DNA of 64,000 nt from Naegleria gruberi (taxonomy: Eukaryota): assembly GCA_000004985.1 (NCBI GenBank), contig GG738901.1. One strand, given 5' to 3'. Shown piece by piece: positions 9,098 to 48,205 of the stretch (position 1 is its first letter; every line of letters begins with the position of its first letter). Both the position numbers and the translations under genes were made by a program. The notes beneath the pieces were generated by a model. It made no database searches. It saw only the letters and a list, made by a program, of their open reading frames with translations, and was not told the DNA's origin.

Positions 9098-10201
9098 TTA
9101 AATCTTTTTAACAATCTGTACAATATCTTCGTCGAGTAATTGATGGTCCTTACCAACTTTTTGAGGTTGATGTTTTACGGATTGACCCCATACCCAAGCA
9201 TATTTGAATTGACGTAAAATGTGTTTGTGAATTCTGGTACAAAAATCTTCCATTGAACTCTTGTCTCTTCTAATAATAACTGGAGCACCAAAGTCAGCAA
9301 CTTGACCTTTTGGTTTTGTGTAAACTCTAATCAAATCCAAATATTCCCATACCTTTTCCAAAAGACCATCCATATTCCATTCGTGGTGAGCAGAAATTGG
9401 ACAAGCATTTGGAATTCTATCAATCAAATCTAATTCTTCAATAGTAATTTGATCAATCTTGTTCATGGCATAAATAGCAGGAATATAAGCACGATTTCCT
9501 TCAATAACGTCGATAAGTTCATCTACAGTAGCATCACATCTGAACATGATATCTGCATTTGGACATTTGTATTCTTGTAAAATGGCTTTAACAATTTCAT
9601 TTGTCAAGTGAGTAAGAGGAACAGAAGACATCATATTCAAACCACCCTTTTCCTTCTTTTTAAATGTAATATTAGGTGGTTGCTTATTCAATCGGATACC
9701 AAATCCTTCCAATTCATATTCAATCTTCTTTTTGTGTGTAAGTGGTTTAAGAGCATCCAAAACAATTAAAATCAAATTACAAGTACGAGCAGTAGAAATA
9801 ACTTGTCTACCTCTACCCTTACCATCCTTAGCACCTTCAATGATACCAGGTAAATCCAATAATTGCAATCTTGCTCCCTTGTAGTTAATAACACCAGGAA
9901 TACAAGTCAATGTTGTAAATTCATATGAAGCAACTTCAGAGAAGGTATTTGTCATCTTGTTAAGTAGAGTAGATTTACCCACAGAAGGAAAACCTACAAG
10001 ACCAATACGAGCATCACCGGATTTGTTGACATCGAAACCATCACCACCTGGTCCTTTCTTTTTAGTAGCATCAGTCAAGAGTTCTCTTCTCAACTTGGCT
10101 AATTTAGCTTTCAATGTACCCAAATGGTAAGCGGTGGCTTTGTTCTTTTGGGTTCTATCCATTTCAGCTTCGATATCCTTGATTTGTTGTAAGACTGACA
10201 T
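9098..10201 (-). CDS. drg1: developmentally regulated GTP-binding protein DRG1, single exon, 367 aa
   Basis: [41 protein letters not shown]... It has the G1-G4 motifs (GFPSVGKST) and a TGS domain, and is the same length as human DRG1. Confidence 0.9.
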
Positions 10202-11394: not shown

Positions 11395-11421
11395 AAGTAC
11401 AGACAGCAAAAGGAGCAAAAG
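11395..11421 (-). terminator. Pol III oligo-T terminator downstream of tRNA-Ala
   Basis: The minus strand immediately 3' of the tRNA reads CTTTTGCTCCTTTTGCTGTCTGTACTTTT. Confidence 0.6.
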
Positions 11422-11457
11422 TGGAGTCATAGGGAATCGAACCCTAGACCTTCTGCA

Positions 11458-11488
<31 letters not shown>

Positions 11489-11494
11489 AACCCC
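11422..11494 (-). tRNA. tRNA-Ala (anticodon UGC)
   Basis: Reverse complement reads GGGGTTATAGCTCAGTTGGTAGAGCGTCTGCTTTGCATGCAGAAGGTCTAGGGTTCGATTCCCTATGACTCCA. It folds as a cloverleaf with a 7-bp acceptor stem carrying the G3:U70 alanine identity pair. The anticodon loop is CTTTGCAT and the T-loop is GGTTCGATTCC. Confidence 0.9.
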
Positions 11495-12760: not shown

Positions 12761-13935
12761 TTATTTACTTGAATCTAAAGGACAAACGTATTGAACAATT
12801 GACATGTCATCTGAAACTGAAATTAAGGAATCACCACTAGTGTTAAAACTCAAACCCCAAACTTGATCCTTATGTTCTTCAAAACTATGAATACATTCCA
12901 ATGTACTTGTTTCCCATATTTTAACTTGTCTATCAGCTGATCCAGATGCAAATATTTGACCTGTTGGAGAAGCAGCCAATGTCAAAACAAATGAATGATG
13001 TCCACTAAGTGATTTAACAAGTGATCCTGAATTACTATTATTATTATAAATTATTTGTAAAATTATTATGAATTATTATGAATTATGATTGTTAAATTAT
13101 TTCACTATTAAATACTATTATAATAATAACATACATATCATAAACATTAATATGCTTATCATCAGAGGCAGAAATTAATCTTTGAGAATCATTAGTAAAA
13201 ACAATACTTCTCACACTCATGGAATGTCCTTCCAAGTGATGCATTAATTTAGATGTTGAAATATCAAAAACACAAACACTTCCATCTTGTCCACCACATG
13301 CCAAATATTTACCACAATTACTCTGTCATTTGTCAATTAGAATATTAAACTATTTAAACATACATATGCAACAGACATAATAAAAGTCTTCTTTTGTGTA
13401 TCTAAAGATTGTTCCTTTTCACCTGTTTGTACATTGAAAATATTAACATTTCCTGATCTAGTACCTGTTGCTAAATGTTGAGCATCAGCACTAAATGCCA
13501 AAGTCCATGATTCAACTAAATACTATTAAATATTATAAATATACTATTAATACATACGTGGTGGAGCTTCTATAATAATTGTTGATTTACCCTTTTCAAT
13601 ATCCCACACTCTAATTACAGAGTCCATTGAACTTGTAGCAACATCTATGATGTTATTATTATGTATGATATGATAATAATATTTAATAAATAAATTGATG
13701 ATCATGATGATGATGGTGATGAAAACATACATTTCCCAGTTTGATCACTAACAATAGAAATAATTCCCAATCTATGTCCTTCCAAAGTTAAGGCTAATTC
13801 AAAATTGTCCAATCTCCAAACTTTAATTGATGAATCAACACTTCCAGTGATAATTTTATCTTGAGCACAGGTTACAGCAAAGACGGAATCACTGTGTGCT
13901 TGTTCGACACGTTCATTTCGTACACGATAGGCCAT
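12761..13935 (-). CDS. ski8: WD40 protein WDR61/Ski8 (PAF/SKI complex). Five exons, approximately 13731-13935, 13558-13644, 13364-13515, 13135-13322 and 12761-13034
   Basis: The spliced product is collinear with human WDR61 (..[25 protein letters not shown].., ..[31 protein letters not shown] at the C-terminus). The introns are GTATGT..AG of about 86, 42, 41 and 100 nt. Track ORFs 13702-13935, 13547-13732, 13092-13304 and 12761-12985 are exon fragments. Confidence 0.8.
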
Positions 13936-43763: not shown

Positions 43764-44972
43764 TTACACTTTTAAAGTCTTGATATTGGAGAGTAATGCA
43801 ATTCCTTCCTCAGTAAGATTGGCTTCCTCCAGATCAAGCTCAATAAGAGTGGGAATGCTGGCGAGATGTTTTGCCCCTTCGTCACCAATGTTAGACGAGG
43901 CTAGTCCGAGAGATAGCCCATATTTTGTGTTTGGCATGATGTAATTGCCTGATAATGAAAGAATTCTCAAAAATTTCATACCACTCAAAGGTTTTACGTC
44001 CTTAATATGATTTCCACTCAATTTCAGACAATTTAGGGTTTCCAATTTTGAAATTTCATCGAGAGATGATATCCTATTTACATCCAATATCAAACTAGTC
44101 AGATTTTTCAACTTGCTAATATTTCTAATATGATTATCGAAAATATAATTTCTTGTGAGGTCTAGATGAGTTAAGTGTGGTAAAGAATCAATCAAATGTG
44201 AAGTTCCTCCTTCTATTGTATCGTATGTGATTGTAAGGGAATGCAAATTCGTCAATTTACATAATTTTCTTGCTCCCGATTCAGTGATACCACCAAATGA
44301 AATTTCCAAGTTGGTAAGACTTATCAATTTAGAAATGCACTCAGCACCCACCATTCCTATTATATGTTTTGAAATTTTTAATGTTGTTAAATTGCTACCG
44401 AACTTGGAAAGGAGCTGTATTTGATTGGTATCATAATGACATGGAGTATTCGATATAAATGCAACTTCTCTCAAATTGTTGAATAATGTCAGCTCATCCA
44501 AATGTCTGAATTTTCCTCTCTTAAATAATATTTTAGATAGTTTGGGCAATGTTTCCAATACTGAAATATTTCTAATAGATCCTGTCAACTCTAATAATTC
44601 CAAATTGTGTAAACTTTTTAACCATTCTGCATCAATTCGTTCCATTCCAAAAATTCTCAACTCTTTCAAATTCTTAAATCCAGCAAAATATTCATCATTA
44701 AAATACCTCAAATAGGTGTTCTCCATTCTCATGATCAACTCTTGCAAATTACAATACTTGTTCAATACCTTCACTTGGCCAATCTCGTAAGAAAAAGTTA
44801 ATGTCATTGGCGTTTTCAACACTGCTCGATACCACTCTCCACAAACCAATTCACAAACTCTCACCACAAACCAAGAGGGAAGGAACCTAAAAACGTGATG
44901 CTCCAATATTTCGGGAGGAAGAAAAAAACGAGAGACAAAATTCTCCCTCTCCTTTCTCAGAGTTCTCCTCAT
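43764..44972 (-). CDS. F-box/LRR-repeat protein (RNI-type leucine-rich repeats), 402 aa
   Basis: The N-terminal F-box-like segment is LPPEILEHHVFRFLPSWFVVRVCELVCGEWY. Tandem repeats of about 24-28 aa follow, of the form L..L..L.L..N.I.D.G...L. Confidence 0.65.
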   Translation of the reverse strand: MRRTLRKERENFVSRFFLPPEILEHHVFRFLPSWFVVRVCELVCGEWYRAVLKTPMTLTFSYEIGQVKVLNKYCNLQELIMRMENTYLRYFNDEYFAGFKNLKELRIFGMERIDAEWLKSLHNLELLELTGSIRNISVLETLPKLSKILFKRGKFRHLDELTLFNNLREVAFISNTPCHYDTNQIQLLSKFGSNLTTLKISKHIIGMVGAECISKLISLTNLEISFGGITESGARKLCKLTNLHSLTITYDTIEGGTSHLIDSLPHLTHLDLTRNYIFDNHIRNISKLKNLTSLILDVNRISSLDEISKLETLNCLKLSGNHIKDVKPLSGMKFLRILSLSGNYIMPNTKYGLSLGLASSNIGDEGAKHLASIPTLIELDLEEANLTEEGIALLSNIKTLKV

Positions 44973-45139: not shown

Positions 45140-46528
45140 ATGATTGAAAAGCCAACACTTAATGTTGTCTTCGTGGGACATGTTGATGCTGGAAAATCGA
45201 CACTGGCAGGGAGATTGTTGAATGCTCTCGGGACAATTAATAATGGAATTATTGATAGGCTTAGGAATGAATCCACGAGAGCGGGAATGGCATCGTTCCT
45301 TTATGCTAATGTGTTGAGTAGAACAAAGGATGAAATAAAGATAGGAAGAACCATTCAAATAGCCCACAGTAGAGCGGAAACTAAGCATTATTATTTGAAT
45401 ATTATTGATGCTCCAGGTAAATTTAACAGATTTAATTTTAATAATTATTCGAAATTTAATTATTGATGATCAAACTTTAATATTTAAATTTTGAATTGAT
45501 AAATAGTTGGATCTTTTATGAAAAGTTTGATTAGAGGAATATCACAAGCTGGAGTTGCCATAATAGTCTTGGATGCTGAAACTGGAGCATTTGAAGCTGG
45601 AATTCAATCAGTTAGACAGACATTAATTATGACAAAAAGTATGGGAGTGATTCAATTGATATTTTGTGTCAACAAGATGGATAGCAGGTTTTTTAATCAT
45701 TCAAAAGATAGGTTTGCAGAAATTAAAGATGAAATTACTAGAATAGCAAAGAGAGCTGGGTATATAGCAGAACCTTTATTCATTCCAGTTTCAGCTTGGA
45801 ATGGATGGAATATATTGGAGCCAGCAGACAAGTTCAGTTGGTTTAAAGGGCCTACACTTCTTGATGCTATTAATGCACTAAAACCACCAACCTATCATTC
45901 TGAAAAGCCTTTGAGAATACCTATTTTGGAGGTTTATAATTTGGAAGGTGTAGGAACTGTAGTTTTTGGAAAAATTGAATCAGGAACTTTAAAATTGGAT
46001 ACTAAACTGAGATTCACAAATGGAAAAAAGAAAATTACTGATGGAACTGTTGGCTCAATAGAGATTTTTAGAAAATCTGTCACTGAGGCAAAAGCTGGAG
46101 AAATGGTGTCAATCAAACTAGAAAATGTAAATTATCAAGATTTGAAAGCAGGTATTATAATATCAGATGCTGAAAATAATCCTGCTCGAGAGGTTGTTTC
46201 TTTTGAGGGTGAGATTGTAATTGTGAAATGCCCTGGTGTTATTAAGCCATCATACAAACCTACCTTCCATTGCTATACATTACAAACAAGATGTAAATTT
46301 AAACAGCTTTTAGAAACTTCCAAGATGCCTGATAGGTCTGAAAAGGAGGAAAATCCAACAGAGCTTAGAACAGGAAGGTTTGCAGTAGTTCTATTCGAAC
46401 CAGATCATCCTTTCTATATTGAGCCATTTGAAACTTTCCCTCCATTTGGAAGGTTTGTAATTAGAGATAATGGACATGTAACATGTGTTGGAATTGTTAA
46501 AAAGGTCAATTACGAGACAGAAAATTGA
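45140..46528 (+). CDS. EF1A/Hbs1/eRF3-family translational GTPase paralog, 2 exons (about 45140-45416 and 45507-46528); the catalytic His of DxPGH appears replaced
   Basis: G1 is GHVDAGKST and NKxD is NKMD, with beta-barrel domains II and III downstream. The G|GTAAAT donor and AAATAG acceptor (90-nt intron) give ..NIIDAPGVGSFMKSLIRG.., compared with EF1A ..IIDAPGHRDFIKNMITG... There is no N-terminal extension. Confidence 0.7.
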
Positions 46529-46737: not shown

Positions 46738-48205
46738 ATGTTCAAACAAGCCAAACCATTAATTGTGCGTTGTGGAAAATCAGCAGCCCAATATAAAAAC
46801 TTTCATACATGTCTCTTCGGAAGAAATTCTTCTTCATCCACAGCTGTGGATCATCACAATTTTGAAGGAATGGAGGATCGGACAGCAAATTTAGCTGAAC
46901 AATTATTGCAAGGAAGTAGAGTTGCACTGAGTAAGTCGATTACTATGGTAGAATCCAAGCTGGTTAAACATCACGTTCAGGCTAGATATTTATTGGCTTA
47001 TCTATCAAAATTGAGACCAGCCAGTGAATTGAAACAATCATTTAGAGTGGGAATTTCGGGTAGGTATTTAAATCATCTGCTTCTTTTAGGATTTAAAATT
47101 AATAATTTAATTACTATTGAATATTATAAAATATTATAATGAAAAGGACCACCTGGAGCTGGTAAATCAACAATGATTGAAGGTTAGTTTGGATAATAAT
47201 AATATTAATCAATTTTGATTGACTGAATAATATGTTAATAGTATGTTTTTGAATATAAATTGATTTGTTTAGGAAAATAATATCAAAATAGGCTCTTGGA
47301 AAACATTTAATTAAAGAACGAGGTGAAAATGTTGCTGTTCTTGCAGTAGATCCAAGCAGCAGTAGAACAGGAGGAAGTATTTTAGGAGATAAAACAAGAA
47401 TGATTGAATTATCGAGAATGGAGGAAGCATTCATTAGACCATCACCATCCATGGGATTTTTGGGAGGTGTAACAGCTAATATGTATGAGATTATTAATTT
47501 ATGTGAATATGCTGGATATGATAATATTCTTGTGGAGACTGTTGGTGTTGGTCAATCTGAAATTCTTGTGGCAGATTTAACTGATATGGTTGTTCTGGTT
47601 GTGCCACCAGGTATGTAATTGTTTGAATTTACTGTGTTTTAATAATTGTGACATTGTGTGAAAAGCTGGAGGGTAAGTTTTTCAATTATTATTAGGATTA
47701 TTAAATATTCCTCAGTGATGAATTACAAGGTATGAAGAGAGGTATTGTGGAAGTAGCCGATTTGGTAGTTGTAAATAAGGCAGATGGTGATTTGGTTTTC
47801 ATTGCAAGAAGAGCCAGGGGTGAATATAGAAGTGCATTGCACTACATGAGACCTAAATATCCTGGAATTTACTATCCAGAAGTAATGTTATGCTCATCCA
47901 GAAGAGAAAATCCAATGGAAGACACCAAATATCCAATTTCTGGAGTTTGGGAGAAGGCCATCAATTATCGAACTGTCATGTTAGAACATGGACTTATTGA
48001 ACAAAAGAGACAAGAACAAAGAAAGACCTGGATGTGGAAACAAGTCAATGAAGAATTAATTACCAGACTCCTTCAAACAGATGAAAACACAAGCTTGTTC
48101 ATTAATAATGTACAAGATAGAGTTGAAAAGGGAGAAATGTCTCCTCGTATTGCTGCTGATGTCATTCTGCAAAAGTTTTTGAAAAACAACAAAGATTCTC
48201 ACTAA
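46738..48205 (+). CDS. meaB: MeaB/ArgK-type GTPase (MMAA-like methylmalonyl-CoA mutase chaperone), at least 4 exons including a 36-nt micro-exon (about 47145-47180)
   Basis: Exon 1 ends ..RVGISG. The micro-exon gives (G)[11 protein letters not shown]. Exon 3 gives [44 protein letters not shown].. Exon 4 gives [25 protein letters not shown]... All of this is collinear with human MMAA. Two junction phases could not be reconciled with canonical GT-AG positions by eye. Confidence 0.75.

Follow-up and report, generated by a model that had tools for sequence, protein, structure and literature searches.

Three highly diverged EF1A-like paralogs of Naegleria gruberi lack the switch II glycine and catalytic histidine

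A two-exon EF1A-like gene with a disrupted G3 motif

A 64,000-nucleotide stretch of the Naegleria gruberi NEG-M genome (contig GG738901.1 of GenBank assembly GCA_000004985.1), hereafter called the window, carries a protein-coding gene at positions 45140-46528 of its plus strand. The two exons of this gene encode a 432-amino-acid member of the EF1A superfamily of translational GTPases in which both the glycine and the catalytic histidine of the G3 motif are missing. As described below, this gene is one of three N. gruberi paralogs that share the same lesion, and the evidence favors the reading that they are eEF1A-derived proteins that probably bind a guanine nucleotide but are predicted not to hydrolyze it in response to the ribosome.

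Before splicing, the gene appears as two plus-strand open reading frames (ORFs) in different frames, 45140-45466 and 45518-46528. All pairs of GT or GC donors and AG acceptors between these two ORFs were enumerated, and only one pairing yields both an open frame and a complete switch II helix. This pairing joins the donor G/GTAAAT (cut between 45416 and 45417) to the acceptor AAATAG (cut between 45506 and 45507), exactly as had been proposed in a first-pass annotation of the window. Exon 1 (45140..45416) begins with MIEKPTL, holds 92 complete codons and the opening base of codon 93, and ends with ...NIIDAP followed by a lone G. The phase 1 intron (45417..45506) is 90 nucleotides long, runs from GTAAAT to AAATAG and has a G+C content of 13%, versus 35-39% for the exons. 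Exon 2 (45507..46528) supplies the remainder of codon 93 and extends to a TGA stop codon at 46526-46528.

The terminal G of exon 1 combines with TT to create the valine codon GTT, and the peptide spanning the junction therefore reads ...NIIDAP-V-G-S-F-MKSLIRGISQA.... This differs from the motif 'DAPGV-GS' given in the first-pass annotation, where the junction G was counted twice; the actual sequence DAP-V-G-S-F has lost the glycine of the DxxG element as well. The claim that the catalytic histidine is gone is upheld, as evident by the fact that no histidine codon (CAY) can be reached by any canonical GT/GC..AG splice among all pairs enumerated.

The spliced product is identical to an existing database protein (EFC39184.1, XP_002671928.1, D2VV70, NAEGRDRAFT_60891) that carries the name 'predicted protein'. 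The existing public annotation of N. gruberi NEG-M thus already contains this gene model with the same junction. Several ORFs of the window exactly match proteins of this strain that are encoded on a 309,005-bp scaffold, among them EFC39183.1 and the DRG GTPase EFC39245.1. The start of the protein is well delimited by an in-frame TAG located 33 nucleotides upstream of the ATG and by an N-terminal sequence, M[IL]EKPTL, that is common to all three paralogs. The P-loop begins after 12 residues and an N-terminal extension is absent, which agrees with the earlier statement that the protein is not a classical Hbs1 or eRF3.

Pfam matches cover all three domains of the EF-Tu/EF1A architecture, namely GTP_EFTU (residues 5-216), GTP_EFTU_D2 (domain 2, residues 242-311; 45953..46162) and GTP_EFTU_D3/GTP-eEF1A_C (domain 3, residues 320-426; 46187..46507), in keeping with the original assignment to the EF1A/eRF3/Hbs1 superfamily. 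Within the GTPase domain, the G1 motif or P-loop GHVDAGKS (residues 13-20; 45176..45199) and the G4 motif NKMD (residues 148-151; 45671..45682) are intact, as first reported, and a G5 element S-A-W is present (residues 188-190; 45791..45799). The switch I core, G-R-T-I (residues 69-72; 45344..45355), includes the Mg-binding threonine and has arginine in place of eEF1A Ile71. All of these features lie on the plus strand, as do the remaining ones of this gene. The degenerate G3 motif at the start of switch II, D-A-P-V-G-S-F (residues 90-96), is interrupted by the intron (45407..45517). When aligned with eEF1A (DAPGHRDFIKNMITGTSQA), this segment falls one residue short of DAPGHRDF; it retains the G3 aspartate but has neither the glycine of DxxG nor the catalytic histidine. 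Farther downstream, the universally conserved helix C sequence QTREH is replaced by SVRQT (45608..45622), which is preceded by a deletion of three residues. The segment SDAENNPARE (46163..46192) corresponds to the eEF1A-type signature [SG]D.KNDP[AP].E, one-residue insertion included, and domain 3 contains the eEF1A-like sequence FPPFGRF.

The sarcin-ricin loop places the switch II residue His95 of eEF1A for the activation of hydrolysis, and Val16 and Ile71 form a hydrophobic gate (PMC5119991). The window protein resembles canonical eEF1A (human eEF1A1 and yeast TEF1; PDB 5lzs and 1f60) in its length class, its three domains, its G1, G4 and G5 motifs, its 40% identity and its signatures. However, it differs from these proteins by the loss of Gly94 and His95, by the change of Ile71 to arginine and by the replacement of QTREH after the three-residue deletion, and also by changes to the WVLD and RERG segments of switch I and to Asn307, His295 and His296. 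The substitutions in switch I comprise D61S, I71R, R67I, E68K and D74Q, and the whole AWVLD..ERERGITID region is strongly altered. Domain 2 carries EIFRK where eEF1A has EMHHE and GEMVS where it has GDNVG, and the asparagine of the aminoacyl pocket is lost. Asp252 is changed to glutamate in this protein and to lysine in its two paralogs.

To express this divergence as a number, we used the 253 alignment columns with an invariance of at least 97% among 93 canonical eEF1A sequences. The window protein keeps 49% of these columns and its paralogs keep 44% and 39%, whereas retention is 51-53% in the eRF3 and Hbs1 sequences chosen for comparison. Given this low retention and the degenerate state of G3, QTREH, switch I and the aminoacyl pocket, the protein is not a canonical eEF1A, as the first-pass annotation had also concluded.

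Three paralogs share the lesion

Three paralogous proteins of N. gruberi NEG-M, encoded on three different scaffolds, exhibit this unusual combination of features. We refer to the window protein (D2VV70) as paralog A, to D2VU83 as paralog B and to D2VYN5 as paralog C. The gene for B resides on a 310-kb scaffold and is annotated 'elongation factor 1 alpha', and that for C resides on a 261-kb scaffold. Pairwise identities among the three range from 50 to 58%. Their G3 motifs read DAPVGSF (A), DAPAAPF (B) and DAPANPF (C), and all are one residue short and devoid of the glycine and histidine; the column of Gly94 is occupied by valine, alanine and alanine, respectively, and His95 is absent throughout. 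Arginine is found at the Ile71 position in all three paralogs, and Val16 is retained in A and B.

At eEF1A-invariant columns, 42 derived substitutions are common to A, B and C. Another 73 of these columns are kept by all three, and they consist mainly of glycine, proline, core and nucleotide-binding residues. Because the three proteins share both the same lesion and these 42 derived residues, the lesion arose once, before the paralogs split.

More members of this family were sought by searching 5.8 billion clustered proteins with a profile, and by a full hidden Markov model (HMM) scan of 1.84 billion representatives that used a family profile built from database proteins. Homology searches yielded three close relatives and no others. 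In the HMM scan, family members score 633-642 bits and every single-copy protein scores at most 275 bits. A lone higher score of 424 bits (P0194) is the sum of two matches to an ordinary EF1A that is duplicated within one gene model. The 1.84 billion representatives, the Joint Genome Institute (JGI) metagenome contigs and the viral contigs yielded no further member, and all matches there are no closer than ordinary EF1A. Protein searches likewise revealed no annotated ortholog in N. fowleri or N. lovaniensis, even though both proteomes are in the collection searched, and no second EF1A-like gene was found in the 64-kb window. By contrast, the DRG-family GTPase of the window (9098-10201, minus strand, a single exon identical to EFC39245.1) shares more than 90% identity with its orthologs in N. 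fowleri and N. lovaniensis.

The possibility that the three homologs are orthologs from three species was ruled out by exact look-ups, which identify them as N. gruberi NEG-M paralogs. Among the homologs in the database, P0001 is the window gene from a closely related strain (deposited in ENA as a 'metagenome'), P0003 is D2VYN5, and P0004 clusters with D2VU83. Within the databases searched, the three paralogs form a private, highly diverged subfamily of N. gruberi.

Selection on the coding sequence and the reality of the lesion

Loss of a catalytic residue might simply reflect a decaying pseudogene, or an assembly or annotation artefact in which the missing histidine is an error. Such an explanation would fit with the bare database name 'predicted protein' and with the outcome of our search for expression evidence, which found none by a literature search with the accessions, in the accessible parts of the N. 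gruberi proteomics supplements or in the N. fowleri comparative supplements. However, the three genes are intact, full-length ORFs on three scaffolds with an identical type of lesion, and parts of the junctions are reproduced in an independent strain assembly. Contig L002 of that assembly reproduces the acceptor side of the window-gene junction, and contig L001 reproduces both sides of the paralog B junction. In this related strain, the paralog B gene is interrupted by a 43-nucleotide intron (L001 738-780) at the same codon position and in the same phase as the intron of A, and its spliced product matches annotated B at 425/429 residues.

The pattern of divergence between the two strains also speaks against decay. 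Exon 2 of the window gene and its counterpart in L002 (1022 nucleotides) differ at five sites, four of them synonymous and one non-synonymous, whereas the ~190 nucleotides of downstream intergenic DNA carry 14 substitutions and an indel. Although the counts are small, this pattern fits purifying selection on the coding sequence. The shared lesion, together with the persistence of 42 derived residues after the separation of the paralogs, argues against both a pseudogene and a sequencing error. A junction that restores the histidine and a sequencing error were the outcomes named in the first-pass annotation as able to overturn its claim; the splice enumeration yields no such junction, and two paralogs share the lesion. 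The pseudogene or artefact explanation is already largely refuted by these data, and we regard it as highly improbable.

Both L001 and L002 derive from ENA assembly ERZ929261 (run ERR1078381), which is labelled as a metagenome and includes an amoeba very near to N. gruberi NEG-M. This amoeba and NEG-M differ by ~0.5% in coding and ~7% in intergenic sequence, and the assembly contains paralogs A and B. This sample could provide a second strain for population-level tests.

Position within the EF1A superfamily

When used as a phmmer query against PDB sequences, the window protein scores 304 bits with eEF1A, 286 with archaeal EF1A, 208 with eRF3, 207 with Hbs1L and 126 with yeast Hbs1. Genuine eRF3 and Hbs1 proteins, for which we used database proteins labelled by their best PDB match, instead score 430-625 bits with their own family and 280-330 with EF1A. 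Sequence identity is 40% to eEF1A compared with 30-37% to archaeal EF1A. Moreover, the paralogs carry the eEF1A-type signatures SD..NDPA[RK]E, PP[FL]GRF and CKF, the first of which includes a one-residue insertion that is lacking from the EF1A sequences of archaea and the eRF3 sequences to which they were compared.

Hbs1 and eRF3 are ancient EF1A-like paralogs, universal in eukaryotes, that carry a protein tRNA mimic rather than aminoacyl-tRNA. The Naegleria protein is similar to them in its retention of eEF1A-invariant sites and in having a likewise degenerate aminoacyl pocket. However, the reference proteins possess an N-terminal extension (HBS1_N, or a PAM2 or Q/N-rich region), an intact DxPGH motif and QT[RK]EH, none of which is found in the Naegleria protein.

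In neighbor-joining (NJ) trees, A, B and C always form one clade on a long stem. We also evaluated the attachment of this clade by maximum likelihood (ML), using a home-made implementation with a BLOSUM62-derived rate matrix and four gamma categories, and testing the 37 branches of a fixed NJ backbone tree of 20 taxa. The best attachment is to the eEF1A stem (relative log-likelihood, lnL, of 0), with a likelihood weight of 0.66 and a support of 0.46 by resampling of estimated log-likelihoods (RELL). Placement as sister to Hbs1 alone is disfavored by -15.1 lnL (RELL 0.03), as sister to eRF3 alone by -18.2 lnL, and inside the sampled eEF1A crown by -24 lnL or worse. An origin from Hbs1 of the kind that produced Ski7 is ruled out by the first of these values.

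A phylogeny had been suggested in the first-pass annotation as a means of classifying the protein. This analysis does exclude a sister relationship to Hbs1 or eRF3 and a position within the sampled eEF1A crown, but it does not fix the deep branch from which the clade emerged, as the eEF1A stem is best with the other deep stems within less than 3 lnL of it. The ML placement therefore mildly favors an eEF1A origin.

The closeness of the three deep stems (eEF1A, eRF3+Hbs1 and archaeal) leaves some room for the alternative that the paralogs go back to an ancient, early-diverging lineage of the EF1 family, derived neither from eEF1A nor from eRF3/Hbs1, which persisted in Naegleria alone or came to it from archaea. 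Two additional features point in the same direction: the eukaryotic two-residue insertion before QTREH is absent from the family, and eEF1A-invariant sites are kept no more often than in eRF3 and Hbs1. However, attraction of long branches to deep nodes is an expected artefact for a fast-evolving clade, and it counts against reading the tree in this manner. The ancient alternative is also at odds with the eukaryotic length of the NKMDSxxxxxS segment in A and B, with the eEF1A-specific signatures, and with the higher identity to eEF1A than to archaeal EF1A. Furthermore, an ancient origin is hard to square with the fact that no relative exists in other organisms among 1.84 billion representatives or metagenomes. 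We consider this alternative unlikely, and these sequence comparisons point to eEF1A, and not to a deeper branch, as the most probable source of the three-paralog subfamily.

A previous survey of translational GTPases provides context for this origin. The survey counted 37 such proteins in N. gruberi, including 12 'eEF1A', one 'aEF1A', nine eEF2, one eRF3 and one Hbs1, and remarked that the extra N. gruberi versions are often highly divergent (Atkinson, 2015; PMC4342817). The window gene is almost certainly among the 13 EF1A-class proteins of that study, although its supplements give only per-species counts and the accessions of the three paralogs were not found there. The single N. gruberi protein that was classed as aEF1A by the HMMs of that study might be taken to favor the ancient alternative, but the paper does not state which protein it is (PMC4342817). 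The same publication reports counts without accessions, and mentions neither the loss of catalytic residues nor a three-member subfamily.

Evaluation of a Ski7-like role

The first-pass annotation considered a Ski7-like role conceivable, in part because a Ski8/WDR61 gene is located in the window (12761-13935). Under this hypothesis, the protein would be an Hbs1- or eRF3-derived mRNA surveillance factor that links ribosomes that have stalled to the Ski complex as well as the exosome. In favor of this comparison, the histidine of G3 has given way to serine (Ser360) in Ski7, likewise a member of the EF1A superfamily, and Ski7 binds GTP without hydrolyzing it, even with ribosomes (PMC4933942). The N-terminal region of Ski7 binds the Ski complex as well as the exosome and suffices for mRNA decay, and the closest paralog of Ski7 is Hbs1 (PMC4933942). 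In addition, attachment of the Naegleria clade to the eRF3+Hbs1 stem is only 0.8 lnL below the best placement.

However, Ski7 is a recent Hbs1 paralog with an essential N-terminal region and a preserved DxxG glycine context, whereas its Naegleria counterpart in this comparison lacks any extension, does not group as sister to Hbs1 and has also lost the glycine. The upstream stop codon and the common start of all paralogs leave no place for an N-terminal region, the sister placements with Hbs1 and eRF3 alone are poor, similarity to eEF1A structures exceeds that to Hbs1 or eRF3 by ~100 bits, and eEF1A-specific signatures are present. N. gruberi already has its own single genes for Hbs1 and eRF3 (PMC4342817). 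The Ski8/WDR61 assignment itself is sound, with a match of 231 bits to human WDR61 over the full length of the window's gene product. Because this gene lies 31 kb away from the EF1A-like gene, with many genes between them in a eukaryote that lacks operons, its presence carries no functional weight; WDR61 also serves the PAF1 complex. We consider a Ski7-like role very unlikely.

A predicted nucleotide-binding pseudo-GTPase

From the evidence presented above, we propose that the window gene encodes an eEF1A-derived pseudo-GTPase that binds nucleotide, cannot be triggered by the ribosome to hydrolyze it, and belongs to the eEF1A-like expansion of N. gruberi. We assign this interpretation a probability of roughly 65%. 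According to this model, the common ancestor of A, B and C would have lost the Gly-His pair of switch II together with one residue of length, lost the helix C sequence QTREH and remodelled switch I. It would have retained the P-loop, the Mg-binding threonine or serine, the G3 aspartate, NKM[DE] and G5. The resulting protein should fold like eEF1A and still bind guanine nucleotide, the sarcin-ricin loop would be unable to switch it off via the histidine mechanism, and the degenerate aminoacyl pocket suggests that aminoacyl-tRNA delivery has been lost. The protein might then serve as a non-catalytic, nucleotide-loaded binding protein for some partner.

The central prediction of the first-pass annotation, that loss of the histidine should result in a protein that binds GTP without ribosome-activated hydrolysis, is retained in this model, since the catalytic histidine is lost and G1, G4 and G5 are intact. 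At the level of sequence and structural model, the protein has lost catalytic residues while keeping both its nucleotide-binding motifs and its fold, which is the hallmark of a pseudo-GTPase. The structural model was made for paralog C with AlphaFold2 and stands in for the window protein. Its mean predicted local distance difference test (pLDDT) score is 80, and values below 50 are confined to switch I (47-77), G3 (92-96), an insertion specific to C and the last four C-terminal residues. The closest known structures are GTP forms of archaeal and eukaryotic EF1A (a/eEF1A), with a template modeling (TM) score of 0.85.

We also considered that the paralogs might still be active GTPases that rely on another form of catalysis, such as the family-specific arginine next to the switch I threonine or a trans-acting activator, and that they cycle without the sarcin-ricin loop. 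The fixation of I71R in all three paralogs and the retention of G1, G4, G5, the Mg-binding threonine and the G3 aspartate would be compatible with this alternative. Moreover, if the alignment gap is set at the glycine, then the histidine position reads valine, alanine and alanine in A, B and C, which resembles the GTPases with hydrophobic substitutions at this site. Such hydrophobic-substituted GTPases hydrolyze GTP by other means. However, the DxxG glycine that senses the gamma-phosphate is missing as well, and switches I and II are the only core regions of low confidence in the AlphaFold2 model. Because eRF3 carries lysine at the gate column and yet uses its histidine, the arginine is not evidence of a new mechanism. 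On balance, retained activity of this type seems unlikely.

Several observations weigh against the pseudo-GTPase model. The NJ bootstraps scatter the A/B/C clade, with no placement above 37%. The ML placement relies on a simple model and a fixed backbone from which the canonical eEF1A of N. gruberi is absent, and it puts the eRF3+Hbs1 stem at -0.8 lnL and the archaeal stem at -2.75 lnL relative to the best. Nucleotide binding by the window protein is itself predicted from motifs, and paralog C reads NKME at G4 and has the atypical P-loop GQANSGKT. A basic gate residue is also present in eRF3, an active GTPase, and some residual or alternative catalysis may therefore persist. Finally, expression evidence did not emerge from the sources searched.

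A more speculative extension of the pseudo-GTPase model is that A, B and C are eEF1A mimics locked permanently in the GTP form that have acquired a new role as a regulatory or arms-race module. They might, for example, occupy the factor-binding site of the ribosome or sequester eEF1B or tRNA, and in this manner throttle translation during encystment or the switch from amoeba to flagellate. Another possibility is that they act as decoys for eEF1A-targeting effectors of the intracellular bacteria or giant viruses that prey on amoebae. If so, the rapid lineage-specific diversification of these genes, alongside the nine eEF2-like genes of this organism, would reflect a module of dead translation factors. 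We view this extension as improbable at present.

Related losses in other protists

To our knowledge, core translation GTPases seldom have catalytically dead copies, and Ski7 is the sole well-studied case in the EF1A branch. However, EF1A-like proteins without the catalytic histidine are also encoded by Tetrahymena thermophila (XP_001019879.1, with DTPGD), by a Physarum polycephalum transcript (DTPGR) and by Anaeramoeba flamelloides (NVPGL). As in the Naegleria paralogs, these proteins lack an extension, are ~430-440 amino acids long and have a substitution of the catalytic histidine. Unlike the Naegleria paralogs, they have retained the glycine of DxxG at its usual spacing, and they fall outside the Naegleria clade in the NJ tree. 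Their histidine losses are probably independent of the Naegleria event, which suggests that EF1A paralogs of protists have lost this residue more than once.

In our database searches these three proteins are labelled P0224, P0226 and P0222, and dozens of unnamed metagenomic representatives have a similarly degenerate G3. A further protein of 977 amino acids (P0195) consists of two tandem, divergent EF1A-like units, the first with DVPGN (no histidine) and the second with DVPGH. Either a dead copy and a live one are naturally fused in this protein, or two gene models have been merged.

The window gene is already annotated, and a divergent eEF1A-like expansion in N. gruberi has been noted in passing (PMC4342817). 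The new element is that three of these genes are now defined as a subfamily that lacks both glycine and histidine and is under selection. Our literature search found no paper that describes either this subfamily or the histidine-less proteins of Tetrahymena, Physarum and Anaeramoeba. Although the finding leaves current knowledge of translation unchanged, the Naegleria and other cases suggest that eEF1A has been turned into non-catalytic proteins repeatedly among protists, and such dead copies should be informative once characterized. The presence of this subfamily in a culturable amoeba offers a testable entry to the question of what these pseudo-factors do.

Neighboring genes

The immediate neighbors of the EF1A-like gene, a leucine-rich-repeat (LRR) protein and a MeaB-like GTPase, reveal no functional link to it. 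The former is a divergently oriented 402-amino-acid ORF (43764-44972, minus strand) whose start codon is separated from that of the EF1A-like gene by 167 base pairs, and the two genes probably share a bidirectional promoter region. Downstream, a multi-exon gene (46740-48205, plus strand) begins ~210 nucleotides past the EF1A-like stop codon, and its last large exon (47732-48205) matches the Pfam family MeaB (methylmalonyl-CoA mutase-associated GTPase). The WDR61/Ski8 ortholog is a five-exon WD40 gene on the minus strand, whose exon boundaries were approximated from ORFs; it is the concatenation of these exons that aligns with human WDR61/SKI8. A single tRNA-Ala(TGC) is encoded on the minus strand at 11421-11494, as identified both by Rfam (72 bits) and by ARAGORN, and it is the sole Rfam match at gathering level in the 64 kb.

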